64,000 nucleotides of DNA from Tubulanus polymorphus (Eukaryota > Animalia > Nemertea), in assembly GCF_964204645.1 (NCBI RefSeq), contig NC_134025.1, forward strand, positions 16,591,101 to 16,655,100. Reading direction: 5' to 3'. A program made the position numbers and the translations under genes. Positions 38,466 through 63,686 of the stretch are shown here, piece after piece (the first letter of the stretch is position 1; each line of letters starts with the position of its first letter). The notes under the pieces were generated by a model. It was given only the letters and a program-made list of their open reading frames with translations. It was not told the origin of the DNA and ran no database searches.

Positions 38466-38502
38466 AGATATTCATTATTTTTATTAATTTATTTTTTTAA
38501 AT

Positions 38503-38829: not shown

Positions 38830-38914
38830 TTATTAGGGAAAAAAATTACTTGTGGTGATGAGTGGTGTCTCGCCCTCTCGCCCTCTGGTATGAAAACGCC
38901 ATCTTCTAATTACT
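38825..38914 (-). repeat. E2 right TIR (90 bp)
   Basis: Reverse complement of 22499-22588; supplies the ATG of ORF 38503-38829. Confidence 0.95.
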
Positions 38915-41634: not shown

Positions 41635-41841
41635 AGTAATAGGGGTTTAGTTGTTCTATACCAAAGGTCGAAAGGTCGAGGTCGATAAATTTTCCAAAAT
41701 GTTAAAATAACAATAATTTCTACTTGAATTAGTCGCGTACACTCCTAATTCAAGTAGAAATTATTATTATTTTAACATTTGGAAAATTTATCAACCTCAA
41801 CCTCTCAACCTTTGATATAGCACAACTAAACCCCTATTACT
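41635..41841. repeat. 207-bp terminal palindrome (left)
   Basis: Arms AGTAATAGGGG...TTGAATTAG and CTAATTCAA...CCCCTATTACT around a 12-nt loop. Confidence 0.93.
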
Positions 41842-41934
41842 CTATCTAATCACAAGTCTCATAATTTACAAGCCTCAACACGTTGAGTATTGCGTATTAC
41901 ATGTTGATTCTAGAACAACCCATCTAGAAAACTA

Positions 41935-42180
41935 CATTAGCCAATCACAGTTGAATATTCCCTATTACTCTATCCAATCACAGTTGAGTATTTTACTATT
42001 AATCTATCCAATCACAGTTGAGTATTACTCTATCCAATCACAGTTGAGTATTCCCTATTACACTAGCCAATCACAAGCCTCATAATTTACAAGTCTCAAC
42101 ACGCAGCTGGGTTTCCCCCACTGTTGAGTAGTATAAATAGGCGGGACTCACACGTGGTAGGACTCACACGTGGTGGGACG
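41935..42180 (+). promoter_or_regulatory. Putative host RNA Pol II promoter for pPolB
   Basis: CCAAT at 41941, 41974, 42008, 42034, 42067; TATAAAT at 42132; GGCGGGA at 42140; two CACGTG in GGACTCACACGTGGT repeats. Confidence 0.6.
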
Positions 42181-42198
42181 CGTTGAGAGGTAAGTGTT

Positions 42199-45100
42199 AT
42201 GTTCAATTTTAATAAAAAGTTTAGTATTAAAATGGAAGCAAATAAGTACTACTGTCCAACATGTAATATCAATATAGATAAATCCCAAAAAGCAAGACAC
42301 AATAAAACTAAAACACATTTAGAGAATAAATTGAAACTAGAATATAAAGATGATATATTAGAAACTAAATTAGAAGAATTAAAGAATGAAAAAGAAACAT
42401 ACAAATGTGATACATGTAATCAATCATTCAGTGATAAAAGATATTATAAAGAACATTTAAAATCTATAAGTCATATTAGAAATAAGAATAATGATATTTT
42501 AGGTGAAGATTATTTTGATAATGATAACGATAAGAAACAGAAGACAATTAAAAGAATAAAAAATAAATTAAACAATAAAAGACCATATATGGAAGATGTA
42601 AGAAATTATATTAATTCATTAGATAATAAAAAAGATATAGAAATAACCGAAGCATTTAAAAGTGATATAGGGCCAGCCGCTATTGAGTTTAAATTTCATA
42701 AAGGAAAAACAATAGAAGAAAATAAAAAACATTTAGAAAATATGAAAGAAATAATAAAAATAATAACTGATGTTGAATACCCTAAAATTAGTATTTCATC
42801 AAAAGTTAAATTTATAAAATCTGAAGATAAACCAATATATAATATAAATTCTCATTCACAACATATTATATCTAAACAACATATAGATGATAAATTAGAT
42901 AAATGTTATAATGAAGTAAAAACTAAAATAGAAGAGAAATATTTTGAAGGATCTGGTTTAATATTTGATGAGATAATATTTATGACTTTACATGTTTATA
43001 ACACAAAATATAATAAGTTAACTAAATCAAAACCAATAGATGAAAATAATGTATCATATTATAAAGAACCAGATATTGAAGCATTGAGTTATATTAAACT
43101 ACCATTTAAAACTAATGCTGTAATAAATGTACAAAATGAAGATGATAAATGTTTTCTATGGGCTATAATAAGTTGTTTACAGCCAACAGAAGATATTACA
43201 CATAGTTTTAGATTAACTCATTATAAACCATTTGAAAATAATTATAAGATAGATAAGTATCCTGTTATAATTAAAGACATCCCAAAGATAGAAAGAGATA
43301 ATAATTTAAGAATAAATGTATTTGATTTAATCAAATTACCAAATACAAAAGGTAACAACATAAAACATTATACATTGGAACCTTTATATCTATCAAAAGA
43401 TTATGATTCAAAGGATGTTATAGATATACTATATTATGAGAATCATTATATGTGGATAAAACGTATTGATTTATTTTTCAAATCAGAAAATGATTTTGAT
43501 AATAAAATATATCTATGTAGAAAATGTATAACTAAATTCAGAACTGAAAGTGCATTATTAAATCATAAACAACTATGTGATAATCATGATTATTGTAAAT
43601 TAGTTTTACCAAATGAAAAAGATAAAGTATTAGAATTCAAAAAATATGATTACAAAAATAAAGTACCATTTGTAATATATGGAGATTTTGAATCATTAAA
43701 TAAAGAATTAACAGATAAAGATAGAAAAGATATATATTATAAAAGAAAGAAATTAAATTCTAATGAAAGTGATTATTCAGAAGAACCACCAAAAACAAAT
43801 ACTATTAAAAAGATTCATCAATCAGCTGCAGCTTTCGGGTTATATATAAAATCTGATTATGTAGAACTAATTGAAAGTGAATATTATAATTATAGAAATG
43901 AAAATGTTATCAATCATTTTTGTGACTTATTAATTGAATATGAAATAAGATTTAGTAAATTATTGAATACAAATAAAGAAATAATTATGACAGAAGAAGA
44001 TAAAGAAGAATTCGTGTTTGCAGATAAATGTTATTATTGTGAAAAGATATTTAATTATAAAGATAAAAAAGTAAGAGACCATGATCATTTGAATGGAAAA
44101 TTTAGAGGCGCGGCGCATGAGAATTGTAACTTACAAGCTAAGAAAATCAATTTTGTTCCAGTAATATTTCATAATTTATCAGGATATGACGCACATTTAT
44201 TTATCAAACAGTTATGCCATAAAATAGAAGAAATCAATAATGAAATAGAAATATTAAATTCAAATAGATTAAAAGATGACAAAGTATCAACTTATAAATT
44301 TAAAATGCTAGCTAAAACATCTGAGAATTATATATCTTTCCAATTTGGATGCTTAAGATTTATAGATTCATATAGATTTTTAAGTAGTTCATTTGACAAT
44401 CTATCAAAATCATTAGTTGATGATGAATTACAAATATTAAAACAACATTACCCAAATAATGATGATTTTCAATTAATGAGATATAAAGGAGCAATTCCAT
44501 ATTCATTTTATAAATCACATAATGATTTTAATATAACTGAATTATTAAAAGAACAATTCTATGATGAATTAAAAAATGAATATGTTAAAGATGAAGTATA
44601 TAATAGAACATTGAATATTTGGAATCATTTCGAAATTAAAAATCATGGACAATTAGTAGATTTATATTTAAAATCAGATGTATTATTATTAACTGATATA
44701 TTTGAAAGGTTTAGAGATGTAAACCTAAAATATTTTAATATTGATCCTTGTCATTGTTATTCATCACCTGGATTAACATGGGATTGTGGATTAAAATTTA
44801 CAGATATAAAAATGGATTTGTTAACAAATATAGATCAATTACTATTATTTGAAAAATCTATAAGAGGAGGTGTTTCAGGTGTATTGGGTGATAGATATTT
44901 CAATGTAAATGATAACCCCGGATATAAATTATTATACATAGATGCAAATAATCTTTATGGTTGGGCAATGATGGAACCACAACCTTATGGGATGTTTGAA
45001 ATAACTGAAGTTTTACAAATTGATAAATTTGATTGGAAGAAAAGAATCCTAGATATTGCAGATGATTCAGAGACTGGTTACTTCTTTGTTGTAGATTTAG

Positions 45101-46266
45101 AATACCCTGAAAATATTAAATTCAAATCTAGAAATCTAGCATATTGTCCCGAACATAAAACTGTTAAACATGAAGAATTATCAAATTATCAAAAAAGAAT
45201 TAAACCCGAAAATCATATTCATACTGAAAAGTTAATGGTAACTCAAGAAGATAAATATAATTATGTACTACATTATAGAATGTTAAAATTCTATTTGAGA
45301 CAAGGAATGATATTAAAAAAAGTACATAGATATATTTCATTCAGTCAATCTAAATGGTTAGAAAAATATATAGATTTTAATACTACACAGAGAACTAAAT
45401 CTAAAACTGATTTTGAAAAAGATTTTTTTAAGTTAATGAATAATGCGTTCTATGGTAAGACTTGTGAAAATATTAGAAATAGAAATGATATTGAGTTAGT
45501 TAGTAATGGTAAAAGGATAAGGCATTTACAATCATATCCTAAGTTTATAGGTAACAGAATATTTGATGAAAATTTAGCAGCAGTTAAAATGAAAAGAACT
45601 TCAATGAAATTTAATAAACCAATTTATGTTGGAGCTGCAGTTTTAGAAATTTCAAAGCTATTGATGTATGAATTCTATTATAATGTATTACAACCTCATT
45701 TTGGAGAAAAGCATATAGAAATCTTATATTTCGATACTGACAGTTACATATTAAAGATAAAAACTAATAACATAACTGATGATTTAAAAACATTAAAACA
45801 TCATTTTGATTTCAGTAACTATCCAAAAAATCATGAATTGTTTACCAATGATAATAAAAAAGTTCCTGGGAAGTTTAAGGATGAATTAGGTGGTGAAGAA
45901 ATGATAGAGTTCATTGGTATTAGATCTAAAATGTATAGTTATAAAACTAAAACTCATGAAGCTAAAAAGTTAAAAGGAATTACCAAAAGCGTTGTTGAAA
46001 AGAATATTCATTTTAAAGATTACATCAATTGTATATTTAATGAAGAAGTTAGAAAACATAAAATGAAATGTTTAAGATCTGAGTACCACGAAATGTTTAT
46101 TGAAGAGATAGAGAAGATAAGTCTAAACCCATTTGATGATAAAAGATATATTTTAGATGATGGAATCCACACAGTCGCCTATGGTTGCAATTTAGATGAA
46201 TATATAAAATTCAAAAGAGAAGAAACAAAAGAAAATGAGATTATGAAAAGGATTCTAGCGTGTTAA
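42199..46266 (+). CDS. Protein-primed DNA polymerase B, intact (likely start 42232)
   Basis: N-terminal Zn fingers, DDKCFLWAI (OTU-like), YGDFES, Endo VII-like VRDHDH..RGAAH..CN insert, HNLSGYD, YIDANNLY, KLMNNAFYGKT, YFDTDS, KLKGI, FDDKR. Confidence 0.96.
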   Translation: MFNFNKKFSIKMEANKYYCPTCNINIDKSQKARHNKTKTHLENKLKLEYKDDILETKLEELKNEKETYKCDTCNQSFSDKRYYKEHLKSISHIRNKNNDILGEDYFDNDNDKKQKTIKRIKNKLNNKRPYMEDVRNYINSLDNKKDIEITEAFKSDIGPAAIEFKFHKGKTIEENKKHLENMKEIIKIITDVEYPKISISSKVKFIKSEDKPIYNINSHSQHIISKQHIDDKLDKCYNEVKTKIEEKYFEGSGLIFDEIIFMTLHVYNTKYNKLTKSKPIDENNVSYYKEPDIEALSYIKLPFKTNAVINVQNEDDKCFLWAIISCLQPTEDITHSFRLTHYKPFENNYKIDKYPVIIKDIPKIERDNNLRINVFDLIKLPNTKGNNIKHYTLEPLYLSKDYDSKDVIDILYYENHYMWIKRIDLFFKSENDFDNKIYLCRKCITKFRTESALLNHKQLCDNHDYCKLVLPNEKDKVLEFKKYDYKNKVPFVIYGDFESLNKELTDKDRKDIYYKRKKLNSNESDYSEEPPKTNTIKKIHQSAAAFGLYIKSDYVELIESEYYNYRNENVINHFCDLLIEYEIRFSKLLNTNKEIIMTEEDKEEFVFADKCYYCEKIFNYKDKKVRDHDHLNGKFRGAAHENCNLQAKKINFVPVIFHNLSGYDAHLFIKQLCHKIEEINNEIEILNSNRLKDDKVSTYKFKMLAKTSENYISFQFGCLRFIDSYRFLSSSFDNLSKSLVDDELQILKQHYPNNDDFQLMRYKGAIPYSFYKSHNDFNITELLKEQFYDELKNEYVKDEVYNRTLNIWNHFEIKNHGQLVDLYLKSDVLLLTDIFERFRDVNLKYFNIDPCHCYSSPGLTWDCGLKFTDIKMDLLTNIDQLLLFEKSIRGGVSGVLGDRYFNVNDNPGYKLLYIDANNLYGWAMMEPQPYGMFEITEVLQIDKFDWKKRILDIADDSETGYFFVVDLEYPENIKFKSRNLAYCPEHKTVKHEELSNYQKRIKPENHIHTEKLMVTQEDKYNYVLHYRMLKFYLRQGMILKKVHRYISFSQSKWLEKYIDFNTTQRTKSKTDFEKDFFKLMNNAFYGKTCENIRNRNDIELVSNGKRIRHLQSYPKFIGNRIFDENLAAVKMKRTSMKFNKPIYVGAAVLEISKLLMYEFYYNVLQPHFGEKHIEILYFDTDSYILKIKTNNITDDLKTLKHHFDFSNYPKNHELFTNDNKKVPGKFKDELGGEEMIEFIGIRSKMYSYKTKTHEAKKLKGITKSVVEKNIHFKDYINCIFNEEVRKHKMKCLRSEYHEMFIEEIEKISLNPFDDKRYILDDGIHTVAYGCNLDEYIKFKREETKENEIMKRILAC

Positions 46267-46294
46267 TCAATTTCAATAAAAATGTGTATAATAA

Positions 46295-46636
46295 ATGGAG
46301 AGTAAACAAGTACACAGTGAATTCTTAGATAGAATTAAAGATACTTCAAGCGTCAAATCTGTAGATTATAAATTTAAAAAACTAACTGAGTTAACAATTC
46401 ACAAGAAATATTTAATTACTAACATTGAAACAATTACTAATAAATATGGAGATAAATTAGTAATTCATTTAGAATATGAAGGATTAAAAGGAAATAAATA
46501 TAAATTCAGAACTTATTTACCAGATAGATTTCATAGATTATCAAGTGAAGATTTAGAAGAATTATGTTCTGGTGATTTCTATTTCATATACAAAGGTAAG
46601 AATGAAAAAGGGCACCATGAAATAGATTTCGAATAA
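46295..46636 (+). CDS. 113-aa putative OB-fold protein
   Basis: Homologs in E1 and E2; TAAATG start. Confidence 0.78.
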   Translation: MESKQVHSEFLDRIKDTSSVKSVDYKFKKLTELTIHKKYLITNIETITNKYGDKLVIHLEYEGLKGNKYKFRTYLPDRFHRLSSEDLEELCSGDFYFIYKGKNEKGHHEIDFE

Positions 46637-46653
46637 GAAAATATGTAAAATAA

Positions 46654-47415
46654 ATGGCGGAATTAAAAGAATACAGAATATTTGTAGATTCTAGAAAACT
46701 TACAAATTATAAATCACATTATTTATTAGTACAATTAGACAGAGAATTCAAAAATTGTGTAGATTTAAAATTAGTTAATATAAGTTTATGTAATTCTTTT
46801 TACAATATATCGAATAAAACTATTGAACATAGAGCTTTTTTAATTTTTAATAAAAATAAAAATGAATGGGTCTATATATATTTAAAACCAGGGTTATATA
46901 ATTTAGATACATTGGCACAAGAAATTAATAGAAAAGCCTGGCACAAATTAGGTAGTAGTTCTGGGTTTAGTATTAGATTTTTAAAAAGTGAGAGTTCTGA
47001 TAGAATAAAGATAAGGTTGTCTAATAGTGAAAAACATAAATTTATGGTAAAAAAACCTATAGCTAAACTGTTAGGAATTCTTCCAGATAGATCTTTTACA
47101 AATATTGACGCTACTACACCAAACTTAATACCTTACACACATTTTTATATTTATTGCAATTTAATTGATCCTACAAAAACATTCGAAGCAACTAAAGATA
47201 TAACTTGTAATTCTGGTTTACTAAACATTTTACCATTGAAGAATGTTAAAGAATTTGGAACGCAAATAAATCATAATTTAACAGAATGTGATTTCAAACC
47301 ATGCATTCCTCGTTTTAATAATTTTAGATTAGAAATTAGAAATCATAATGGATACTTAATTGATTTAAATAATTTCCCTGTAATTTATGAATTAGTTATA
47401 AGATGTAGAGAGTAA
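46654..47415 (+). CDS. Minor capsid (penton, single jelly-roll) protein
   Basis: NSFYNIS..LKPGLYNL..FYIYCNLID..LNILPL..LEIRNHNGYLIDLNNFPV pattern typical of Polinton mCP. Confidence 0.82.
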   Translation: MAELKEYRIFVDSRKLTNYKSHYLLVQLDREFKNCVDLKLVNISLCNSFYNISNKTIEHRAFLIFNKNKNEWVYIYLKPGLYNLDTLAQEINRKAWHKLGSSSGFSIRFLKSESSDRIKIRLSNSEKHKFMVKKPIAKLLGILPDRSFTNIDATTPNLIPYTHFYIYCNLIDPTKTFEATKDITCNSGLLNILPLKNVKEFGTQINHNLTECDFKPCIPRFNNFRLEIRNHNGYLIDLNNFPVIYELVIRCRE

Positions 47416-47432
47416 TTTTTTTCACTATATAA

Positions 47433-47774
47433 ATGAATATAACTGTTGGCCCGAGTATATGTTTTGGGTTTGATTTTAAACATGGTAAAGAAATGAGAAT
47501 TAAACTAAATGATGTAATTACTGATATAAAAAGTAAATTATTTAACAATGCGTCAATGATTGATAAAGAAAAGTATAATATAGAAAAAGTAATTGATTTA
47601 ATTAAATCACCTTTAGAATATTATGAATTAAATGAAGATGGAATTATTGAAGATATTAAAAACATATTATCCAAAATATATGATAATCATAAAACTAGTA
47701 ATGAAATAAATGTTGAAATAATCATAAATAAGTTAACTAAATATTTTGAAGATAGTAATTTTTTTGATAAATAA
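47433..47774 (+). CDS. Hypothetical 113-aa protein
   Basis: Homolog of 29851-30204. Confidence 0.8.
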   Translation: MNITVGPSICFGFDFKHGKEMRIKLNDVITDIKSKLFNNASMIDKEKYNIEKVIDLIKSPLEYYELNEDGIIEDIKNILSKIYDNHKTSNEINVEIIINKLTKYFEDSNFFDK

Positions 47775-47996
47775 ATGAGTGATAATAAGTGGATAATAAC
47801 TGGATTATATAATGGCGCATTACTATCAGTTGGAACGGTTGGTTATTCAATGGTATTAAAAAAAGTATTCAAAATGGGAAGTGTTAATGTTGATAGATTT
47901 GATATAAATGATATTTTAAAATTAACATTAGCAGTTACTTTATCTAATTTAACTATTGATTATTTAGAAAAACAAAAATATATTCCTCCCATATAA
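47775..47996 (+). CDS. 73-aa small hydrophobic protein
   Basis: Conserved in all three elements. Confidence 0.88.
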   Translation: MSDNKWIITGLYNGALLSVGTVGYSMVLKKVFKMGSVNVDRFDINDILKLTLAVTLSNLTIDYLEKQKYIPPI

Positions 47997-48020
47997 ATGC
48001 ATAATTTTTTTGCTAAATAA

Positions 48021-48443
48021 ATGGCTTCTGCAATTATAACTATTATAGGATCGGCAATTGTTAACGCTTTAGCATTTACTGGTGGTGGATATTTATTTAA
48101 ACATATTGATAAAAATAGTTCATTAGGAGAACAAAGAAGACATAACTTAGCGTTAGAGAAATACAATAAAGCTGCAGAAGAATATAGAGAAAAACGACAA
48201 AACTATATGGATTACATCAATAAAGAATTATATGATCAGAAGATTTCACATAGAGATTTTCAATCAGTTGATGATGCAATGAGTTTATATAACGCAGTAA
48301 CAAATAAAGAAAAATTACATCTATACACACCTAAATTATCAGATTATTATACCCCAAGTAAAGAACAACAGAAATATGAAATAATTTGGATTTTAGGTGG
48401 AACAGTTATTGTTATATTTGTAGCATATAAGTTTACTAATTAG
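48021..48443 (+). CDS. 140-aa membrane-associated protein
   Basis: Conserved in all three elements. Confidence 0.88.
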   Translation: MASAIITIIGSAIVNALAFTGGGYLFKHIDKNSSLGEQRRHNLALEKYNKAAEEYREKRQNYMDYINKELYDQKISHRDFQSVDDAMSLYNAVTNKEKLHLYTPKLSDYYTPSKEQQKYEIIWILGGTVIVIFVAYKFTN

Positions 48444-48461
48444 TAATTTTTTTCTAAATAA

Positions 48462-48896
48462 ATGGAAGATAAAGTTGATAGTATTGATATTATTCCTCAT
48501 GATATAAATAAAACTAAATTAAAAACATATTTAGAAAAACAAATATTAGAATTTGAAAGTGACTTAAAGATAAAAAAGAAAAAATATTTAAAAAGTAAAA
48601 TTATATATTATTTGATTATAAGTGGTTCGGTTACAATTAGTTCTGTAATAACATTTCTAGCAATATTCAGCCCATTAACACCTTTAGCTATATCAATTGG
48701 TGTATTAGGATTAAGTTCAAGTGTTTTAACTGGTATAAGTTCAAAATTAAATATAAAAAGTAATAAAGAAAAAATAAAATCTAATATAAAAGAAATTAAT
48801 AAATTAAAGAACACACTAGATTATATAATAAGTTTAAATGGCCATATAACAGTTGAAGAACAAGATAAATTATTAAAAGAATTAATAAATTATTAA
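48462..48896 (+). CDS. 144-aa two-TM protein
   Basis: Conserved in all three elements. Confidence 0.88.
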   Translation: MEDKVDSIDIIPHDINKTKLKTYLEKQILEFESDLKIKKKKYLKSKIIYYLIISGSVTISSVITFLAIFSPLTPLAISIGVLGLSSSVLTGISSKLNIKSNKEKIKSNIKEINKLKNTLDYIISLNGHITVEEQDKLLKELINY

Positions 48897-48913
48897 TTTT
48901 TTTAATTATATAA

Positions 48914-50302
48914 ATGGTAGATAGTTTTCCAAAAGCTTTCCAATACAATAAATCAATTAAATATAATATTCCAGCAATAGATTTTAATAAAGATATTACA
49001 TATAGAAATGAAGTTTTAGATTCATTAACTAATTTAGAAATTTATGTTACTGAAACTAATAATTTTAATGCAAAGATGGAAAATATATTTCATATATATT
49101 TAATTAATTTTTAAAAATTGAAAGATGAAAAACAATGGTTATTAAAATCTAATATGAAGTATTGGCAGAATCAATTAAATTTTGCTGTTTATTGTGCAAC
49201 AACAGGTTGTGGAATTAGTTGGAATGATCATTTGAATAATTCTAAATATAAACTAATTCAAAGTTTATTTAGATTTCATACATACTTTCAAATCAGAATA
49301 ATATTAAATGAATTAGTGTGCGCTTTACCAGGATCTAGGTATTTCAAAGAATTAGATAATAATATTAATTTATCTAAGTTTTATAAGATTTGCAATGAAT
49401 TTAATATAGATATAAATAATTCTGATTTTAGAACAAAAATTGGAACAATAAGATCACTTCCATGCCCTAGAAAGATTGCAGAATATTGTGCACTTCCCAT
49501 ACCATCTAATAGTTTTTATAATATCTATAATAATAAATTAGGTTATGGTAAAATAGAAACAAAGGATTTAGAAACATTAAATTTCAATAAATTACCGAAA
49601 TTTTACGATAATTTAAAACAAGAAAACAATAATGGTTGGGTTTATTTCATTTTAGAAAATAGTGAAGGTTTTACTAAATCAGGTATAGAAAGAATAAATC
49701 AATCTATTAGAATTTATTTGATATGTATTTTAGGCGCTCAAGTTGAAACAAGATCACCGATAATTGGAAATTTAAATACATCATTCGATACACAAAAACA
49801 ATTTAAAGTTTTATTTGAAGATTCCATACATAATGATAAAAATAGATCGATTCCAGAAAACATTATAAGATATCAAAATTATTTAGATAAATCACATATT
49901 AGATTAAATTATTGTATAGGTCCTAATCTATTAATTATTTCTAATGATTTAGTATTAAAGATGGGAAACATAATTGGTTATAATAATCTAATTAAAACCG
50001 CAACAATAAATAATTCATTTGGATTGAATGATATAAATAAAAAGATTATCACTGCTCCAAAATTAATGGAAGGTGAAAAAAATAAAAAACATATTCAATC
50101 AACAGAAACTAAAACTAAGAATATTAAATTAAATAATGATTCTAAAATAAAAGATTACAATACATCAGAAGATATAAAAACTGATAAAATTCAACATGAT
50201 ATAATTAAACTAAATGACGATAATAAATCCCATGAAAATACTAAATTAGCTATAACTTGTATAGGAATTGTAATCGGAGGAATATTATATTTTAAATTTT
50301 AA
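48914..50302 (+). pseudogene. ~445-aa conserved protein with one in-frame TAA (49112-49114)
   Basis: 66-aa and 394-aa ORFs are in the same frame and align to 31348-32685. Confidence 0.82.
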
Positions 50303-50318
50303 TTTTTTTATTATGTAA

Positions 50319-52034
50319 ATGGATGTAGAAGGTGGAGAAGATTATGAAATGGGAGAAATGGGAAATAATAATGAAGGATATATTGATGATGATTATAATG
50401 ATGCAGAAACTAATATTGATAATGATGATGAATCAGCATATAATACTAATTTAGGTGAAGATGATGATTATGATGATGATTATGATGATGATCCCGAATT
50501 ACGTGAAAAATTAAATAAATATTTAAAAGCTCCTGAAATTGGTAGAATTTCAACTAGAAGAGAAAGAAAAGAATTTATGGAACTATTAGAAAAACAACAA
50601 GAAAAATATCCTGATAAACCTATGGAATTATATAAAATGAAATCTAGAGTAACAGATACAATTGTTAACGAATTATTACCAACAGTTGTAATAGATGAAA
50701 TTGATTCAGAAGGTGTTGTAGAACAAATTTTTAAAGATGACCCATATTTCACAAATAATTTAGAATTTAAAAATGATTCATGGTATTATAATGTTAATTT
50801 AAATAACACAATTGTATCAATTCAATTATCTAAAATGGGTCAAGAAAATATTTATGAACCTGAAATGCGAGCAACATCTACAATTGAAGGTTCAAAAGGT
50901 GGTAGAGAATTTCTCAGAATTATATGGAATGCACTCGATAGAGTAAATGAAGAAGAACCAATTCCTAATATTGATATAAACAAATATTCACCATTTAAAA
51001 ATCCAAATCCAAATCCTACTGATTTTGATCCAGAAATGGAAGAGAATAGAAATCGATTAGATAAATTGAGATCTTCAACACCCGAAACATCGAGAAGAGA
51101 CACTCAACCAATTGATAATTATTCAAGTCAATTACAATTAGAAAAACAAATTGATAGATTAAGAGATTCAGAAGAACTGATGAATAGTATATCAGATACA
51201 TCTGGTTCTGAAACTGGAATAAATCGACTGCAATATTTACTAGAAAAAGGATTTCTTAATTTAACTGATGCAGAATTAGAAACATTTCCTGAACAAATAC
51301 GTAGAGAAATTAAAGGTATACAAGTATCAGCTGATGAAATTGCTAATATTAAGATGAGATTTTCTAAAATAACCATGTTAGAAAAAGAATTAGTTAATGT
51401 AGATGAAGAATTAAAACAATTAGAATTAAATAGAGATCATCAAGTAGTTTATGAAGCTGATTATGAAAGCAGAAAGTTAGCTTTAGTAAAAGAAATAGAT
51501 GATTTAGAATATAACATAAAATTACAAAAAGAAGAAAGAGATATATTATTAAAATCATATGATCTTAATCATATTAAAAAATTAAAAGTTATTTTTAAAG
51601 ATTTGTTGATAAAACCAGATTCTGAAATATCATTAAAAGACAGAATAAAGTTATTATTTAAGTTAGAAGGAATAACAATTCTTTCAATTCTAACAGCTGT
51701 AACTATGTTATTTACAACAATTGGTTTAGCAATATCAAATGCTTTAAAATCTACTCCTACTCCCACTCCCAATAAACCAGATAAACCTCCAGGTAATAAT
51801 TCTATACAAGATAAAGTTAAGGATGGTTTAAAAAAATTAGCAAAATATTTATGGGAACTATCAAAGAAATCTGCTGCAGCATTGCCAGGAGTTATTGCAT
51901 CAATTGTTGGTTTTATATTGAAATCTGCAGGAAACATTCTTAACTTTGCTGCTGAACATATTATTTTATTTTTAATTACAGTTGTAAGTGCTATTATTTT
52001 TGGGTTAGTAAATATGATATCAAAAAATAAATAA
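50319..52034 (+). CDS. 571-aa acidic/coiled-coil protein with C-terminal TM segments
   Basis: Variable N-terminal part, conserved hydrophobic C-terminus. Confidence 0.88.
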   Translation: MDVEGGEDYEMGEMGNNNEGYIDDDYNDAETNIDNDDESAYNTNLGEDDDYDDDYDDDPELREKLNKYLKAPEIGRISTRRERKEFMELLEKQQEKYPDKPMELYKMKSRVTDTIVNELLPTVVIDEIDSEGVVEQIFKDDPYFTNNLEFKNDSWYYNVNLNNTIVSIQLSKMGQENIYEPEMRATSTIEGSKGGREFLRIIWNALDRVNEEEPIPNIDINKYSPFKNPNPNPTDFDPEMEENRNRLDKLRSSTPETSRRDTQPIDNYSSQLQLEKQIDRLRDSEELMNSISDTSGSETGINRLQYLLEKGFLNLTDAELETFPEQIRREIKGIQVSADEIANIKMRFSKITMLEKELVNVDEELKQLELNRDHQVVYEADYESRKLALVKEIDDLEYNIKLQKEERDILLKSYDLNHIKKLKVIFKDLLIKPDSEISLKDRIKLLFKLEGITILSILTAVTMLFTTIGLAISNALKSTPTPTPNKPDKPPGNNSIQDKVKDGLKKLAKYLWELSKKSAAALPGVIASIVGFILKSAGNILNFAAEHIILFLITVVSAIIFGLVNMISKNK

Positions 52035-52054
52035 TTAATTTTTTTGTTAAATAA

Positions 52055-53302: not shown

Positions 53303-53334
53303 AATTTTAACTTTAATAAAAAATCTTATATTAA

Positions 53335-54462: not shown

Positions 54463-54489
54463 TTTAAAATATGAATATAATACCCTTTG

Positions 54490-55015
54490 TGTCTTTATTG
54501 TCTTTAGTAGTTTAGTACTTTTAGTACATAAAGAATAAATCTTTATTTTATTAGTAGTGAATAAAATTATTTTTAAAACTACTAAACTACTAAAGACAAT
54601 AAAGACATAAATATATATATATAACACTGTTTCAATAATTATATTTATTCATCTGATGGATTTTATATATTACTGTTTCAATAATTAAATCTATTTATCA
54701 CACATATTTATTATATATATCATAGATTTACCATTTATAAAAATTATTTATATATTTATTCTTTATGTACTAAAATTATAAAAGATAATAAACACATAAC
54801 AAAACACATATAGATGTAATAAATATCATAGATTTATTTATCTCACATATTTATTATATATATTTAATTCAGTAATAATAAATCTATATGTGTTTGTTAT
54901 GTCTTTATTATCTTTAGTAGTTTAGTAGTTCTATTTTATTTTATTCACTACTAATAAAATAAAGATTTATTCTATATGTACTAAAAGTACTAAACTACTA
55001 AAGATAATAAAGACA
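54490..55015. repeat. Nested inverted-repeat (fold-back) region between convergent gene arrays
   Basis: 54490-54567 is the rc of 54938-55015 (2 mismatches); 54577-54609 is the rc of 54897-54930. Confidence 0.85.
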
Positions 55016-55074
55016 TTAGGGGGAGGTATATAATACATATCTAATACATATCTAATACATAGGTATACAAATAG

Positions 55075-55689
55075 TTATTTTATAAATTTATATTCATATG
55101 GAAATTGTAGTCTCAGAAGTAATTTGGAACCTTTATTATTCTTTAATTTATTCATATATTCATCGTGTAATTCAGTAGGTATAATTTGATTTTCTTCCAA
55201 AGATTGTTGCATAGATTTTCTATCTTTGTTGTAGAATAAAACTAGAAATCTTATATTCTCTCTAAAATCTTTCACAATTGAATTATATTTCTGATTTAAA
55301 ACCCAAGTTGTTATCCCAAAATGTCTACCAGAGAAAGCTAAATAACATAACTCACTTTCTCTAATTTTAGAATCATGTAAATTTGCGCAATCATCGATAA
55401 TAAATAATGTATTAGATCCTTTATAAATATCTAATGCAATTTTTATACAATTATCTAAATTATCTTTTACTGTTTTAGAATTTAATATAATAAACTTTTT
55501 ATCTTTAAAAACTATATCTCTATTATACGTTTCATTCATTTCATAAGTTGGGCAGAATAATATTATATTATCGAAATGATTTTTATAAATAGTTTCTAAT
55601 AAATCTAATATGAAGTGTGTTTTACCACAATTTGTAAATCCAGTAACTAACATATTATGTGGTTCAAATATAAACAAATCTTTATTCAT
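55075..55689 (-). CDS. A32-like packaging ATPase
   Basis: GFTNCGKT, LFIIDD, SGRH. Confidence 0.93.
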   Translation of the reverse strand: MNKDLFIFEPHNMLVTGFTNCGKTHFILDLLETIYKNHFDNIILFCPTYEMNETYNRDIVFKDKKFIILNSKTVKDNLDNCIKIALDIYKGSNTLFIIDDCANLHDSKIRESELCYLAFSGRHFGITTWVLNQKYNSIVKDFRENIRFLVLFYNKDRKSMQQSLEENQIIPTELHDEYMNKLKNNKGSKLLLRLQFPYEYKFIK

Positions 55690-56770
55690 TTATTCTTTTA
55701 ATTTTACTAGATAAAATCCATTCATTAAATTTATCATCATATCCTTTATATTTCACCAGAGAATATTTCTTACCGCGTAATGTTTTAGTTTTCAATACCT
55801 TTTCTATTTTGTATTCTATTTCATCTGGATTTGGTACTAATGATAATTCTTGTTCATAAAAATAACCTAATATTTCTTCATCTTTTAAATCAAACAATTT
55901 ATAAACAAATGGTTTAGTTAATATTATCTTTTTAATCTTGAATATTTCTTCAGTAAAATTAGGGGTATAACCTTTATAAAATGTTTTTCTATATTTAGAA
56001 ATTCTAACATGTTGTCCTATTTTAAATTTAGGTTCTCCAAAATCATGTGTAACAAATGCTCCATATAAATTATTCCAAACTATTTCTGAATTATCTTCTT
56101 TTCTAGCTTGTATAGGTTTCATATTTATAGAACTATGTTTAGAATTATTATAACCTTTCACTAAATCATCTAACACATCGATATATTTATCTGTTTCATT
56201 AGCAGTAAAATATTTCCACATTCTAGTTTTCAATGTTTTATTAAATCTTTCTATAACAGATGCTTTTTTATCTGAGTGTGTTGAAAAATATTCTACATCG
56301 TTATCAGACAATAGTTTATTGAAATGTTTGTTATAAAATTCTTTACCTTCATCAAATTGTATCTTATCTGGAATAGCTTCTTTAAATATAGATTTAAAAG
56401 CATTTGTTACTTCTATTCCAGTTTTATTTTTGATTGGAATTGACCATGCGTATCTACTGAATATGTCTATAACATTTAGTATCCAAAAATATCCTTTGTT
56501 ATATTCTTCTAAGTTTTTCATATCAATTAAATCAGCTTGCCATTGTTGGTCAATATATGAAACCATTACTTTTCTTGTTAAATATTTTCTATCCATCTTT
56601 TTATGAATTTGATATGTGGGTTGATTTTGTAACCATGATTTTAATTCACTATATTTTATTTTTTCTTTATCAGATTTAATTTTATCCCATAATTCCGAAA
56701 CACTTGAATATGAAACTTCACTTTCTGGGTTATAATATAAATCTCTTAAATATTGTTCTTTTTTCATCAT
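55682..56770 (-). CDS. RVE integrase with chromodomain-like C-terminus
   Basis: QWQADLIDM, IQFDEGKEF, SVIERFNKT. Confidence 0.94.
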   Translation of the reverse strand: MMKKEQYLRDLYYNPESEVSYSSVSELWDKIKSDKEKIKYSELKSWLQNQPTYQIHKKMDRKYLTRKVMVSYIDQQWQADLIDMKNLEEYNKGYFWILNVIDIFSRYAWSIPIKNKTGIEVTNAFKSIFKEAIPDKIQFDEGKEFYNKHFNKLLSDNDVEYFSTHSDKKASVIERFNKTLKTRMWKYFTANETDKYIDVLDDLVKGYNNSKHSSINMKPIQARKEDNSEIVWNNLYGAFVTHDFGEPKFKIGQHVRISKYRKTFYKGYTPNFTEEIFKIKKIILTKPFVYKLFDLKDEEILGYFYEQELSLVPNPDEIEYKIEKVLKTKTLRGKKYSLVKYKGYDDKFNEWILSSKIKRINE

Positions 56771-56773
56771 ATT

Positions 56774-57154
56774 TTAATCCATTAATAATATTTTAGATTT
56801 ATTTTCATTTGATTTATTTTCTGGTATGATAGGTTTATCATCGGAATCATCTTTATCATCAGAATTGAATTTTGATTTATATATTACACCGGAGAATATA
56901 ATAATTGTGATTAACCCAATTGTAATATATAAGTAATTATTTCTTCCACTATTAGAAGAATTAGATGGATTATTATTTGAATCAATACCACCGTGTGGGT
57001 GCCGTACGGCATCATCAGATAATTTCTGTGATTCATTTATATCAGTTAATTTCTTTTTCTTAGCTTTTTTTAATTCTGATGATCTTTTACCTAATTCTCT
57101 TGCCCATTTAATTTGTTTCTCGGATCTAGCCTTTTTCTTAACGCTATCACTCAT
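56774..57154 (-). CDS. 126-aa basic single-TM protein
   Basis: RSEKQIKWARELG; carries the in-frame AVRHPHG palindrome insert. Confidence 0.82.
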   Translation of the reverse strand: MSDSVKKKARSEKQIKWARELGKRSSELKKAKKKKLTDINESQKLSDDAVRHPHGGIDSNNNPSNSSNSGRNNYLYITIGLITIIIFSGVIYKSKFNSDDKDDSDDKPIIPENKSNENKSKILLMD

Positions 57155-57749
57155 TTATTTTAGTTAATTTTTGTTCTGATTCATTTTCTGTTTCGACGTT
57201 TGGTTGTAGTACATCTGTTTCGTTCTTACCTGATTTATATTCCATAGGCTTGATATTCGAAAATGTTATAACTCCAGTAGAAATCAATGTCATAACCGAT
57301 CCTAATTGAAATGAAGCATAACCGACCCATTTTTGTAATTCAGTCATAACTAAATAGTCATTTTTCAAATCATTATATAATTTATTTTCATCATCAATTG
57401 GTATTAACTGGTTACATAACTTAGAATAACATTTGACAATACCATTCGAAATAGAATCATTTATTTTAGATAATCTTGCCTCTTCATAAATCTTAAAATA
57501 TTTTATTACTTTATCGGGTTTCATAGCATCTAATTCTTGAAAAGTTATTATTTTTCCCAAGAAATCCTTAGATTTCCCTCCAGCAATTAATAATTCAAGA
57601 TGGTCCTTACAATATAAATAGTATTCATAATCAATATTACAATTAATATTATTTTCAATTTTGATTGGAATATCCTTATTATCACTAATGCCTAAATCAT
57701 CTAATGTTTTTTCAATGTTGGTATTATTCTTATTAGATTTCTTTGACAT
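57147..57749 (-). CDS. 200-aa conserved protein
   Basis: Homologs in E1 and E2. Confidence 0.85.
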   Translation of the reverse strand: MSKKSNKNNTNIEKTLDDLGISDNKDIPIKIENNINCNIDYEYYLYCKDHLELLIAGGKSKDFLGKIITFQELDAMKPDKVIKYFKIYEEARLSKINDSISNGIVKCYSKLCNQLIPIDDENKLYNDLKNDYLVMTELQKWVGYASFQLGSVMTLISTGVITFSNIKPMEYKSGKNETDVLQPNVETENESEQKLTKINE

Positions 57750-58079
57750 TTATATAGGAGAAAAAAGCAAGAAAAATATTATAAGTATTATAAAATGATA
57801 CTAGCTAGTTAAAGCTAAAGAATTCTAGTATTGACTACTGATACTAGCTATTTGAATTTAAAGAATTTCTATTTGAATCTATTCAAAATATAAAGTATTC
57901 TCTTTTTGAAAAGAAAATATTAAAAATATAATAGAATTCACTAGCAGTTGAAGTTATTGTTTTTTTATTATATTTTATTTAAATTAGGATCTAATATCTC
58001 ACTACTATTGTCTATCACTGTGTGGGTGCTGTTTATGGCACCATCTATTAGGAGCAGTAACTATAACTGTCCAGATAAG

Positions 58080-58757
58080 TCATTTCGGATCCTTGATATC
58101 AAATTCCTCAACGTATCGTTCATTATTTGGATTATTGTTCCATTGATCAATAAATTTCTTTGCCTTTGTTAACTGTTCTAAATATAACGGTAAATCTAGT
58201 TTATTAGATTTGATTTGATTTTCTTTCTTTTCTAAAGGTCTTAAATTTTTCCAACCCCAAATAAGTTTTTTATTGTATTCATCATTCATGTTAAATTTAG
58301 ATATTGGTAACACATGATCAATATGGTAATAATCCCCATAATTATCTATATTCATTTTATCATCAAATTGAAATATAATCCATGATTTGAGAAATTCATC
58401 TGAACAACCCAATAGATAAGATAGTGTTTCTGAATGTGTTTCTTTGTTGAATAATTGTGTTAATCTAGTCCTTAAGCATTGTTTCAATCTAAAATTAAGA
58501 TCTGTTTGATATCTTTCTCTCATATATTCTGCCATATAATAATTATAATGTTCTATATTATCTTCTCGATATTGTTTAGTATATAGTTTAGTGCAAGTTT
58601 TACAGCAATATTGAAAACCATCTTTGCTAATCTTACGCTTACTAAATTCTGTTAAAGCTAATTTATCTAATTCACATTTAGAACACTTCTTGTAATATAT
58701 GTTTATAACGCCAGTGTTATTTGTAATATTGATAGTTTGTGGTTGTTCTGGTTCCAT
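58080..58757 (-). CDS. HNH-type endonuclease
   Basis: CSKC..CKTC, HIDHVLPISKF, WKNLRPL..EN..KSN. Confidence 0.82.
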   Translation of the reverse strand: MEPEQPQTINITNNTGVINIYYKKCSKCELDKLALTEFSKRKISKDGFQYCCKTCTKLYTKQYREDNIEHYNYYMAEYMRERYQTDLNFRLKQCLRTRLTQLFNKETHSETLSYLLGCSDEFLKSWIIFQFDDKMNIDNYGDYYHIDHVLPISKFNMNDEYNKKLIWGWKNLRPLEKKENQIKSNKLDLPLYLEQLTKAKKFIDQWNNNPNNERYVEEFDIKDPK

Positions 58758-59057
58758 TTATTATACGTATTTTTGCACGTTTGTAATAATGATTCATAAT
58801 ATCTCGGCGTCATAGTAACAACTGTAACAGCTGTGAATTTATAGATTTATTCCATAGCTCTGTACATTGAATGTATATAGGCTCAAATAGAATCATTTTC
58901 TAGTATAAACATCGGATCCTCAACGTATTGTTCATTATTTGGATCATTATTCCATAATTCAATAAATTTCTTTCCCTTTGTTAACTGTTCTGAATATTCT
59001 AGTTTCAATTTATTCTCTAAATGTGTTTTAGTTTTATTGTGTCTTGCTTTTTGGGAT

Positions 59058-62000
59058 TTACGCTAGAATCCTTTTCATAATCTCATTTTCTTTTGTTTCT
59101 TCTCTTTTGAATTTTATATATTCATCTAAATTGCAACCATAGGCGACTGTGTGGATTCCATCATCTAAAATATATCTTTTATCATCAAATGGGTTTAGAC
59201 TTATCTTCTCTATCTCTTCAATAAACATTTCGTGGTACTCAGATCTTAAACATTTCATTTTATGTTTTCTAACTTCTTCATTAAATATACAATTGATGTA
59301 ATCTTTAAAATGAATATTCTTTTCAACAACGCTTTTGGTAATTCCTTTTAACTTTTTAGCTTCATGAGTTTTAGTTTTATAACTATACATTTTAGATCTA
59401 ATACCAATGAACTCTATCATTTCTTCACCACCTAATTCATCCTTAAACTTCCCAGGAACTTTTTTATTATCATTGGTAAACAATTCATGATTTTTTGGAT
59501 AGTTACTGAAATCAAAATGATGTTTTAATGTTTTTAAGTCATCAGTTATGTTATTAGTTTTTATCTTTAATATGTAACTGTCAGTATCGAAATATAAGAT
59601 TTCTATATGCTTTTCTCCAAAATGAGGTTGTAATACATTATAATAGAATTCATACATCAATAGCTTTGAAATTTCTAAAACTGCAGCTCCAACATAAATT
59701 GGTTTATTAAATTTCATTGAAGTTCTTTTCATTTTAACTGCTGCTAAATTTTCATCAAATATTCTGTTACCTATAAACTTAGGATATGATTGTAAATGCC
59801 TTATCCTTTTACCATTACTAACTAACTCAATATCATTTCTATTTCTAATATTTTCACAAGTCTTACCATAGAACGCATTATTCATTAACTTAAAAAAATC
59901 TTTTTCAAAATCAGTTTTAGATTTAGTTCTCTGTGTAGTATTAAAATCTATATATTTTTCTAACCATTTAGATTGACTGAATGAAATATATCTATGTACT
60001 TTTTTTAATATCATTCCTTGTCTCAAATAGAATTTTAACATTCTATAATGTAGTACATAATTATATTTATCTTCTTGAGTTACCATTAACTTTTCAGTAT
60101 GAATATGATTTTCGGGTTTAATTCTTTTTTGATAATTTGATAATTCTTCATGTTTAACAGTTTTATGTTCGGGACAATATGCTAGATTTCTAGATTTGAA
60201 TTTAATATTTTCAGGGTATTCTAAATCTACAACAAAGAAGTAACCAGTCTCTGAATCATCTGCAATATCTAGGATTCTTTTCTTCCAATCAAATTTATCA
60301 ATTTGTAAAACTTCAGTTATTTCAAACATCCCATAAGGTTGTGGTTCCATCATTGCCCAACCATAAAGATTATTTGCATCTATGTATAATAATTTATATC
60401 CGGGGTTATCATTTACATTGAAATATCTATCACCCAATACACCTGAAACACCTCCTCTTATAGATTTTTCAAATAATAGTAATTGATCTATATTTGTTAA
60501 CAAATCCATTTTTATATCTGTAAATTTTAATCCACAATCCCATGTTAATCCTGGTGATGAATAACAATGACAAGGATCAATATTAAAATATTTTAGGTTT
60601 ACATCTCTAAACCTTTCAAATATATCAGTTAATAATAATACATCTGATTTTAAATATAAATCTACTAATTGTCCATGATTTTTAATTTCGAAATGATTCC
60701 AAATATTCAATGTTCTATTATATACTTCATCTTTAACATATTCATTTTTTAATTCATCATAGAATTGTTCTTTTAATAATTCAGTTATATTAAAATCATT
60801 ATGTGATTTATAAAATGAATATGGAATTGCTCCTTTATATCTCATTAATTGAAAATCATCATTATTTGGGTAATGTTGTTTTAATATTTGTAATTCATCA
60901 TCAACTAATGATTTTGATAGATTGTCTAATGAACTACTTAAAAATCTATATGAATCTATAAATCTTAAGCATCCAAATTGGAAAGATATATAATTCTCAG
61001 ATGTTTTAGCTAGCATTTTAAATTTATAAGTTGATACTTTGTCATCTTTTAATCTATTTGAATTTAATATTTCTATTTCATTATTGATTTCTTCTATTTT
61101 ATGGCATAACTGTTTGATAAATAAATGTGCGTCATATCCTGATAAATAATGAAATATTACTGGAACAAAATTGATTTTCTTAGCTTGTAAGTTACAATTC
61201 TCATGCGCCGCGCCTCTAAACTTTCCATTCAAATGATCATGGTCTCTTACTTTTTTATCTTTATAATTGAATATCTTTTCACAATAATAACATTTATCTG
61301 CAAACACGAATTCTTCTTTATCTTCTTCTGTCATAATTATTTCTTTATTTGTATTCAATAATTTACTAAATCTTATTTCATATTCAATTAATAAGTCACA
61401 AAAATGATTGATAACATTTTCATTTCTATAATTATAATATTCACTTTCAATTAGTTCTACATAATCAGATTTTATATATAACCCGAAAGCTGCAGCTGAT
61501 TGATGAATCTTTTTAATAGTATTTGTTTTTGGTGGTTCTTCTGAATAATCACTTTCATTAGAATTTAATTTCTTTCTTTTATAATATATATCTTTTCTAT
61601 CTTTATCTGTTAATTCTTTATTTAATGATTCAAAATCTCCATATATTACAAATGGTACTTTATTTTTGTAATCATATTTTTTGAATTCTAATACTTTATC
61701 TTTTTCATTTGGTAAAACTAATTTACAATAATCATGATTATCACATAGTTGTTTATGATTTAATAATGCACTTTCAGTTCTGAATTTAGTTATACATTTT
61801 CTACATAGATATATTTTATTATCAAAATCATTTTCTGATTTGAAAAATAAATCAATACGTTTTATCCACATATAATGATTCTCATAATATAGTATATCTA
61901 TAACATCCTTTGAATCATAATCTTTTGATAGATATAAAGGTTCCAATGTATAATGTTTTATGTTGTTACCTTTTGTATTTGGTAATTTGATTAAATCAAA

Positions 62001-63122
62001 TACATTTATTCTTAAATTATTATCTCTTTCTATCTTTGGGATGTCTTTAATTATAACAGGATACTTATCTATCTTATAATTATTTTCAAATGGTTTATAA
62101 TGAGTTAATCTAAAACTATGTGTAATATCTTCTGTTGGATGTAAACAACTTATTATAGCCCATAGAAAACATTTATCATCTTCATTTTGTACATTTATTA
62201 CAGCATTAGTTTTAAATGGTAGTTTAATATAACTCAATGCTTCAATATCTGGTTCTTTATAATATGATACATTATTTTCATCTATTGGTTTTGATTTAGT
62301 TAACTTATTATATTTTGTGTTATAAACATGTAAAGTCATAAATATTATCTCATCAAATATTAAACCAGATCCTTCAAAATATTTCTCTTCTATTTTAGTT
62401 TTTACTTCATTATAACATTTATCTAATTTATCATCTATATGTTGTTTAGATATAATATGTTGTGAATGAGAATTTATATTATATATTGGTTTATCTTCAG
62501 ATTTTATAAATTTAACTTTTGATGAAATACTAATTTTAGGGTATTCAACATCAGTTATTATTTTTATTATTTCTTTCATATTTTCTAAATGTTTTTTATT
62601 TTCTTCTATTGTTTTTCCTTTATGAAATTTAAACTCAATAGCGGCTGGCCCTATATCACTTTTAAATGCTTCGGTTATTTCTATATCTTTTTTATTATCT
62701 AATGAATTAATATAATTTCTTACATCTTCCATATATGGTCTTTTATTGTTTAATTTATTTTTTATTCTTTTAATTGTCTTCTGTTTCTTATCGTTATCAT
62801 TATCAAAATAATCTTCACCTAAAATATCATTATTCTTATTTCTAATATGACTTATAGATTTTAAATGTTCTTTATAATATCTTTTATCACTGAATGATTG
62901 ATTACATGTATCACATTTGTATGTTTCTTTTTCATTCTTTAATTCTTCTAATTTAGTTTCTAATATATCATCTTTATATTCTAGTTTCAATTTATTCTCT
63001 AAATGTGTTTTAGTTTTATTGTGTCTTGCTTTTTGGGATTTATCTATATTGATATTACATGTTGGACAGTAGTACTTATTTGCTTCCATTTTAATACTAA
63101 ATTTTTTATTAAAATTGAACAT
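59058..63122 (-). CDS. Second intact pPolB copy
   Basis: Differs from the left copy at Q/H, N/Y and F/L, and lacks the last Cys. Confidence 0.95.
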   Translation of the reverse strand: MFNFNKKFSIKMEANKYYCPTCNINIDKSQKARHNKTKTHLENKLKLEYKDDILETKLEELKNEKETYKCDTCNQSFSDKRYYKEHLKSISHIRNKNNDILGEDYFDNDNDKKQKTIKRIKNKLNNKRPYMEDVRNYINSLDNKKDIEITEAFKSDIGPAAIEFKFHKGKTIEENKKHLENMKEIIKIITDVEYPKISISSKVKFIKSEDKPIYNINSHSQHIISKQHIDDKLDKCYNEVKTKIEEKYFEGSGLIFDEIIFMTLHVYNTKYNKLTKSKPIDENNVSYYKEPDIEALSYIKLPFKTNAVINVQNEDDKCFLWAIISCLHPTEDITHSFRLTHYKPFENNYKIDKYPVIIKDIPKIERDNNLRINVFDLIKLPNTKGNNIKHYTLEPLYLSKDYDSKDVIDILYYENHYMWIKRIDLFFKSENDFDNKIYLCRKCITKFRTESALLNHKQLCDNHDYCKLVLPNEKDKVLEFKKYDYKNKVPFVIYGDFESLNKELTDKDRKDIYYKRKKLNSNESDYSEEPPKTNTIKKIHQSAAAFGLYIKSDYVELIESEYYNYRNENVINHFCDLLIEYEIRFSKLLNTNKEIIMTEEDKEEFVFADKCYYCEKIFNYKDKKVRDHDHLNGKFRGAAHENCNLQAKKINFVPVIFHYLSGYDAHLFIKQLCHKIEEINNEIEILNSNRLKDDKVSTYKFKMLAKTSENYISFQFGCLRFIDSYRFLSSSLDNLSKSLVDDELQILKQHYPNNDDFQLMRYKGAIPYSFYKSHNDFNITELLKEQFYDELKNEYVKDEVYNRTLNIWNHFEIKNHGQLVDLYLKSDVLLLTDIFERFRDVNLKYFNIDPCHCYSSPGLTWDCGLKFTDIKMDLLTNIDQLLLFEKSIRGGVSGVLGDRYFNVNDNPGYKLLYIDANNLYGWAMMEPQPYGMFEITEVLQIDKFDWKKRILDIADDSETGYFFVVDLEYPENIKFKSRNLAYCPEHKTVKHEELSNYQKRIKPENHIHTEKLMVTQEDKYNYVLHYRMLKFYLRQGMILKKVHRYISFSQSKWLEKYIDFNTTQRTKSKTDFEKDFFKLMNNAFYGKTCENIRNRNDIELVSNGKRIRHLQSYPKFIGNRIFDENLAAVKMKRTSMKFNKPIYVGAAVLEISKLLMYEFYYNVLQPHFGEKHIEILYFDTDSYILKIKTNNITDDLKTLKHHFDFSNYPKNHELFTNDNKKVPGKFKDELGGEEMIEFIGIRSKMYSYKTKTHEAKKLKGITKSVVEKNIHFKDYINCIFNEEVRKHKMKCLRSEYHEMFIEEIEKISLNPFDDKRYILDDGIHTVAYGCNLDEYIKFKREETKENEIMKRILA

Positions 63123-63686
63123 AACACTTACCTCTCAACGCGTCCCACCACGTGTGAGTCCTACCACGTGTGAGTCCCGCCTATTTATACTACTCAACAG
63201 TGGGGGAAACCCAGCTGCGTGTTGAGACTTGTAAATTATGAGGCTTGTGATTGGCTAGTGTAATAGGGAATACTCAACTGTGATTGGATAGAGTAATACT
63301 CAACTGTGATTGGATAGATTAATAGTAAAATACTCAACTGTGATTGGATAGAGTAATAGGGAATATTCAACTGTGATTGGCTAATGTAGTTTTCTAGATG
63401 GGTTGTTCTAGAATCAACATGTAATACGCAATACTCAACGTGTTGAGGCTTGTAAATTATGAGACTTGTGATTAGATAGAGTAATAGGGGTTTAGTTGTT
63501 CTATATCAAAGGTTGAGAGGTTGAGGTTGATAAATTTTCCAAATGTTAAAATAATAATAATTTCTACTTGAATTAGGAGTGTACGCGACTAATTCAAGTA
63601 GAAATTATTGTTATTTTAACATTTTGGAAAATTTATCGACCTCGACCTTTCGACCTTTGGTATAGAACAACTAAACCCCTATTACT
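59060..63686 (-). repeat. E3 right TIR, 4627 bp, includes second pPolB
   Basis: Reverse complement of 41635-46261. Confidence 0.95.
63480..63686. repeat. 207-bp terminal palindrome (right)
   Basis: Mirror of the left hairpin. Confidence 0.93.

Follow-up and report, generated by a model that had tools for sequence, protein, structure and literature searches.

The 64,000-nucleotide stretch of the Tubulanus polymorphus genome analysed here (contig NC_134025.1, positions 16,591,101 to 16,655,100; hereafter the window, whose coordinates are used throughout) contains, at 41635-63686, a DNA transposon of 22,052 bp. This unit carries the polymerase gene pPolB, an integrase, a packaging ATPase and a capsid gene, ends in terminal inverted repeats (TIRs) and is bounded by a 6-bp target-site duplication (TSD), features that identify it as a Polinton/Maverick element. 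Its length lies within the 13-25 kb described for Polintons with TIRs and a 6-bp TSD, and the duplicated AATACG has a chance match of about 3e-4 for a 6-mer, as computed from the composition of the flanks. A self-BLAST of the window pairs 41635-46261 with 63686-59060, in inverted orientation and as one gap-free block of 4,627 bp with 9 mismatches (99.8% identity), which confirms the inverted copies inside one TSD described in an earlier note made from the sequence. As that note also held, the repeat far exceeds the usual range of Polinton TIRs, given as 46-1,447 bp in 134 intact vertebrate Mavericks (PMC8097293) and generally as 100-1,500 bp (bioRxiv 2023.08.22.554363).

The boundary of an older and shorter TIR is preserved next to the inner end of the right arm. 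Directly within the right junction, 58994-59060 is a third copy of 42279-42345, 100% identical to it. Read inward from the right end, the sequence follows 41635 to 46261, returns to 42279 through one shared base, continues to 42345 and then enters the unique right block. This layout indicates that the original TIR corresponded to 41635-42345 (711 bp) and that its outer part was lengthened by 3,983 bp. The repeat reaches only one base into the final sense codon of the left pPolB, and the frame of the right pPolB is open because the junction itself supplies the TAA. The 67-bp remnant and the 207-bp hairpins at the ends are additional to what the earlier note had described.

Sibling copies in public reads display the shorter arrangement. 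These were sought in X5, a set of raw Illumina reads from another study, of which about 12% of the run was read, only reads at least 95% alike were placed, and 40 of the 812 rows of the resulting difference table were considered. Position 58997 is joined to 62976, the mirror of 42345, in 56 reads with 38 start points, with 8 letters between them, while 58193 is joined to 62976 in 45 reads with 28 start points, a joint that skips the HNH gene. The joints at 62976 therefore show that siblings carry the 711-bp TIR, with or without the HNH gene, and such siblings indicate in turn that the 3,983 bp were added to the copy in the window. The earlier note had proposed looking for copies with short and with long TIRs: the short form was found in X5, and the long-TIR junction appeared in none of its reads. 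With 56 and 45 reads for the two short-TIR joints and none for the long junction, the long repeat was not found to be the family's standing form in this one other sample. The extension was probably a one-off event affecting one copy.

Coordinates, strand and basis of the features of the 22,052-bp element
Feature	Position in window	Strand	Basis
Left repeat arm	41635-46261	+	self-BLAST
Right repeat arm	59060-63686	-	self-BLAST
Native left TIR, 711 bp, with promoter-like region and first 49 pPolB codons	41635-42345	+	remnant and sibling reads
Embedded 67-bp remnant, inner end of old right TIR	58994-59060	-	self-BLAST
Added 3,983-bp segment, duplicate of 42279-46261	59060-63042	-	self-BLAST, sibling reads
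Novel junction, 1-nt microhomology, creates stop of second pPolB	59058-59060	-	sequence
Left TSD, AATACG	41629-41634	+	sequence
Right TSD, AATACG	63687-63692	+	sequence
Terminal imperfect palindrome, 207 bp	41635-41841, mirror copy 63480-63686		predicted hairpin, -73 kcal/mol
RNA polymerase II (Pol II) promoter-like motifs in TIR: 5 CCAAT, TATAAA at 42132, 2 CACGTG (E-box)	41941-42172	+	function inferred
pPolB, left copy, 1,355 amino acids (aa), open	42199-46266	+	ExoI-III, motifs A-C present
pPolB, right copy, 1,354 aa, open	59058-63122	-	Tyr at conserved ExoII Asn (residue 659)
Conserved open reading frame (ORF), 253 aa, penton candidate	46654-47415	+	Pfam and PHROG gave no match
Major capsid protein, double jelly-roll, 415 aa	52055-53302	+	predicted structure, Foldseek, Atlas
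AT-rich imperfect palindrome, 525 bp	54490-55015		between two convergent gene blocks
A32-like packaging ATPase	55075-55689	-	Pfam Pox_A32, E 3.5e-12
rve integrase with chromodomain (weak)	55682-56770	-	Pfam rve E 2e-9; DDE motifs
HNH/endonuclease VII-like gene, optional in family	58080-58757	-	PHROG 1035, E 6e-16

The two polymerase genes and the arm differences

All six catalytic motifs of the polymerase (ExoI-III and motifs A, B and C) are found in pPolB. The ORF of the main element gave no PF03175 match of its own; it is 62% identical to the pPolB of a neighbouring element in the window, which is itself a PF03175 match at E 6e-19. Nine positions distinguish the arms. One is non-coding (41821), five are synonymous (K7, F618, K634, P857 and D1195) and three are replacements (Q/H328, N/Y659 and F/L732), so that the five synonymous and three replacement differences counted in the earlier note were recovered and one non-coding change was added to them. 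The polarity of the replacements can be read from homologues, taken as the best 120 of 3,132 matches. Glutamine at residue 328, carried by the left arm, occurs in 0 of the 120, as does the right-arm tyrosine at residue 659, the ExoII asparagine, where N is present in 119; the left-arm phenylalanine at residue 732 is shared by 2 homologues, against 117 with leucine. The non-coding difference disrupts a pair of the left terminal hairpin. Together, the replacements, which are of a damaging type, and the hairpin change look like unselected, drift-type changes spread over both arms, and the ExoII change is predicted to impair proofreading by the right pPolB.

The arms also differ from the siblings in a characteristic way. 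At 59538 and 61148 the right arm carries alleles for which X5 has the other letter in 94 of 94 and 26 of 26 reads, respectively; the former allele, which is synonymous, is present in run X1 at a depth of about 22 (74,236.5 minus 74,214.4), and the latter occurs in no X1 contig. Alleles common to both arms are nearly absent from X5 as well, the other allele being found at 60053 (55/56), 61308 (183/183), 61459 (254/254), 61944 (106/107), 62236 (301/303) and 62652 (255/255). Some of the shared alleles are replacements, among them one that places leucine at residue 296 (S-to-L), where 91 of the 120 homologues have serine. Most of the X5 family reads (12,731 of 13,884) are only 95-99% alike and 1,153 are at least 99% alike, while the two arms differ by 0.19%. 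This small difference, combined with the near-private alleles that the arms share, indicates that the added segment was copied either from the left end of the element itself or from a near-clone.

Two uses of the arm differences were tried and rejected. A mosaic tract defined by their clustering was set aside, as the clustering is not significant (P 0.12-0.14), and dating by TIR identity failed because the intervals overlap (0.09-0.37% for the arms, 0.04-1.1% for the outer TIR). A wider caution follows from the extension, namely that the age of an insertion may not be readable from the identity of its TIRs.

Origin of the extension

We favour, with moderate confidence, an explanation in which the integrated element suffered a break within its right TIR and used its left end as the template for repair. 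Geometry, remnant, short-TIR siblings and the polarity of the replacements are observations, and the break, the template and the timing are inferences. The outer broken end, attached to host DNA and bearing 644 bp of TIR homology, would have paired with the left TIR, and synthesis would have continued for 3,983 bp beyond the break point, across almost all of pPolB. The new strand would then have disengaged and joined the inner broken end, which would have retained 67 bp of the old TIR, by 1-nt microhomology. The TSD would have been left intact, and both arms would subsequently have drifted, acquiring the nine changes. The second polymerase would accordingly be a by-product, its open frame owed to the luck of the junction stop. 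The remnant, the position of the junction in the native TIR and the intact TSD are all predicted by a break inside the right TIR. Specifically, the junction falls within the native TIR, as break repair requires, a region where a random template switch would land in about 3.9% of cases (711/18,069 bp). That the HNH gene, which adjoins the right TIR, made the break is a guess.

Several observations weigh against repair from the left end followed by drift. The synonymous excess emphasized in the earlier note is nominally present: 5 of 8 coding differences are silent, whereas the transitions and transversions observed would give 1.7 (P=0.010), and outside the native TIR the count is 4 of 7 (P=0.026), although both tests are post hoc and the numbers tiny. 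All four transitions are silent. Such an excess is unexpected under pure drift and forms the chief argument for a replicating or sibling donor. Two of the three replacements hit codons that at least 97% of homologues conserve, an unexplained excess over the neutral expectation (P=0.018). Break repair also predicts an extension younger than the outer TIR, and the difference in divergence (7/3,983 against 2/644) is not significant (Fisher P=0.36). The rare alleles common to both arms, scored on 40 of 812 rows and on reads at least 95% alike, might belong to a subfamily that X5 does not contain. Finally, 57 bases placed across 59060 gave no bridging record in the contigs of X1, X3 and X4 or in the raw reads of X5, which come from another sample; seven contigs from the first three cover the remnant side of the junction. 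Logan contigs lose rare branches in a high-copy family, and none of the runs could be matched to the assembled individual, so this result is not taken as a refutation of the junction.

A less probable course of events, which is a narrower version of the model in the earlier note, is that the extension preceded integration and took place while the genome was linear and free. A strand begun at the left end would have switched template into the right TIR as the genome replicated by protein-primed strand displacement, or a fragment from the left end of a clone-mate would have recombined there, with integration and drift following. The same geometry would result, no gene was lost, and the silent changes, with their nominal excess, would fit better than under repair in the chromosome. 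The family is multi-copy: X5 depth is 52-859 across the element and about 14 in the flank. Copy number itself is not trusted from these values, because the flanking sequence could be repetitive and the depths of contigs were added up. In three butterfly species, moreover, a gene-bearing TIR form is present at insertions that are polymorphic (bioRxiv 2025.02.07.637071). This account does not, however, predict a landing inside the native TIR, which has the 3.9% expectation by length given above, though gene retention would favour it. The contrast in X5 between no junction reads and 45-56 reads per short-TIR joint means that the long form did not become widespread there, and the right-arm alleles examined are private.

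Chromosomal repair from a near-identical copy elsewhere is unlikely. Under this scheme the template would have belonged to the same burst, the silent changes would have accumulated under selection and the replacements would have come later, which would account for silent transitions and damaging transversions together; the family has many copies, as seen in the 1,153 X5 reads at least 99% alike. Against it, the right-arm synonymous allele at 59538 is found in none of the 94 X5 reads, the nearest template is the element's own left TIR, and the differences show no significant clustering.

Equally doubtful is the view that the long form is a mobile Polinton with two polymerases, in which a promoter in each TIR would drive a complete pPolB, much as expansion of the inverted terminal repeats (ITRs) increases gene dose in poxviruses. 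On this view the form arose in a replicating genome, and the silent differences would reflect selection that acted on the two copies ahead of integration. A mobile form of this kind, if real, would appear as other loci in the assembled genome that share the 59060 junction. The earlier note had ascribed the second copy to a sibling genome under selection rather than to post-insertion drift. As stated, that proposal is not supported, in view of the drift-type replacements, the private right-arm alleles and the near-private alleles shared by the arms.

An assembly artefact, either a misjoin of two family copies or a chimeric read, was considered improbable in the earlier note and is the least likely of these explanations: the family is high-copy and the junction is unbridged in X1, X3, X4 and X5, but the matching TSD would rarely arise by chance, the arms resemble one another far more than they resemble typical siblings, share near-private alleles and carry private changes on each side, and X1 contains the right-arm allele at 59538, though not that at 61148.

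Gene content and gene starts

The structural genes lie in the unique part of the element. An AlphaFold2 model of the major capsid protein, built on a 67-sequence alignment, reached a pLDDT of 95, and its top Foldseek match was the PBCV-1 capsid (E 3.4e-17, TM 0.65), an iridovirus capsid also being matched; by sequence, the protein had no match in the PDB. A metagenome scan with the capsid recovered four loci (L001-L004) of 71-77% identity, none of which extends to pPolB or to a terminus, and a scan of viral contigs with pPolB found no relative. The 253-aa ORF at 46654-47415 we take to be a candidate penton on account of a resemblance. An adenain-like protease gave no Pfam match in the 15 element ORFs and no hit in a crude six-frame motif scan, which a divergent one could escape. 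Proteases occur in 74% of Polintons, being common and not universal (PMC4028283), and the gene is not treated here as defining for membership.

Two convergent gene blocks meet at the AT-rich palindrome at 54490-55015, and the convergent order is native, because L002-L004 have the same arrangement. A fusion of two half-elements, tail to tail at this palindrome, is ruled out by that shared order and by the sibling reads, which link the right block to the short TIR. Shorter inverted repeats lie at like positions in L001 and L004. Each TIR starts with one of the 207-bp palindromes, which open and close with the terminal motif. The HNH gene is flanked by 81-bp direct repeats that are 90% alike (58105-58185 and 58917-58997); a homologue is found in reversed orientation in L002 (5592-6050) and at 15990-16637 of the window.

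Most gene starts of the element share one motif. TAAATG stands at the start of 14 of the 16 non-pPolB ORFs in 46295-58757, compared with 48 of 665 ATGs overall (P ~1e-14), and a T5 run precedes 8 of the 16. Of the 30 ORFs in L001-L004, 28 begin with it, and the neighbouring element at 22499-38914 has it at 11 of 15. TAAATG is the late start motif of vaccinia (PMC4542343), and the gene starts here resemble the poxvirus late initiator, whereas pPolB has a putative Pol II-type promoter in the TIR instead. Among the matches listed, no paper was found that treats TAAATG together with Polintons. These starts could reflect a helper-virus or late-type transcription programme in the family, and they may matter more than the TIR extension.

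Related elements and known systems

Two further members of the family occupy the window. The element at 22499-38914 has the TSD GCTGTG and 93-bp TIRs that end at a start codon on both sides. Its pPolB is divided between two ORFs (22774-23925 and 24157-27654) and has a LAGLIDADG intein at motif C (YFD...TDA), its integrase/ATPase block is on the plus strand, a 113-aa gene is relocated to the right end, and there is no terminal palindrome. The third member, at 1-21910, is decayed and carries frameshifts; its identity to the main element is about 90%, and its right block is inverted relative to the latter. It contains a 2-kb insertion of higher GC (16630-18630), a 24-bp tandem array (14770-14926) and, at 21768-21910, a 143-bp terminal palindrome with the terminal motif at both of its ends. 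Within its pPolB lies a BEL/Pao long terminal repeat (LTR) retrotransposon (646-7515), with 426-bp LTRs that have 2 differences and an open pol ORF of 1,532 aa; its presence points to an animal as host. The structural block of the main element is 87-91% alike to that of the 22499-38914 element, as against 74% for pPolB and 76% for the integrase block; the comparison covered 45655-47164 against 7693-9214 and 29031-31884. Family members are mosaics, a pattern that points to module exchange.

In its gene set (pPolB, rve, A32 and major capsid protein), TIRs, TSD and 22-kb size, the main element is like animal Polinton/Maverick elements, or adintoviruses (PMC4028283, PMC8097293, PMC8502044). It differs from them in its 4,627-bp TIR, its two pPolB ORFs, the lack of a detected protease and its 207-bp terminal hairpins, and its end motif is AGTAAT where animal Polintons have AGTAGT. 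Terminal palindromes within TIRs are described in virophages and polinton-like viruses, mostly without pPolB, and by that account long ones are unusual for a pPolB-type element (bioRxiv 2026.07.28.741278).

Butterfly polintons offer a published case of genes inside Polinton TIRs. Their TIRs of about 2 kb contain hexon and adenain, giving two copies per insertion (Pannagram, bioRxiv 10.1101/2025.02.07.637071), and core genes are likewise doubled within the TIRs here. In the butterflies, however, the form is common to many insertions in three species, whereas in T. polymorphus it is the polymerase that is doubled, the repeat is more than twice as long, and siblings keep short TIRs. No report of pPolB in both TIRs of a Polinton was found in a search that excluded supplements, Kapitonov and Jurka 2006 and Jurka 2007, either of which may describe TIR expansion. 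Gene-bearing Polinton TIRs and the proposal that TIRs grow by break repair were already known.

That proposal was made for Galileo of Drosophila mojavensis, whose TIRs are extended by recruiting adjoining internal sequence, with a break in TIR2 repaired on TIR1 as the suggested mechanism (PMC3573991). The same paper says that expansion of Polinton inverted repeats had been reported earlier, and its citations include Jurka 2007. In both systems the sequence beside TIR1 is found inverted before TIR2 and siblings are shorter. Galileo extensions measure hundreds of bp, are non-coding and are longest in defective copies, whereas the present one spans 4 kb and a whole gene and leaves a remnant of the old TIR. 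As a single, apparently drifting copy, the element shows no new biology by itself. It is nevertheless an unusually clean record of Polinton TIR growth, in which the old TIR boundary, the break point, the copied tract and the join are all legible and the extension took in an entire core gene whose frame is open.

The same process would provide a concrete route by which butterfly polintons could have acquired gene-bearing TIRs and larger linear DNA viruses could have duplicated their terminal genes. A literature search found no report of ITR extension in adenoviruses. In the gene-containing ITRs of poxviruses and giant viruses, one end copied onto the other duplicates terminal genes (PMC13712841), and the likeness to poxviruses drawn in the earlier note stands as regards shape. 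It does not extend to a standing form, given that siblings keep the 711-bp TIR and the extension belongs to one copy. Poxviruses and giant viruses keep their ITRs in free genomes, whereas here a single integrated copy has diverging arms and the receiving end lost no gene.

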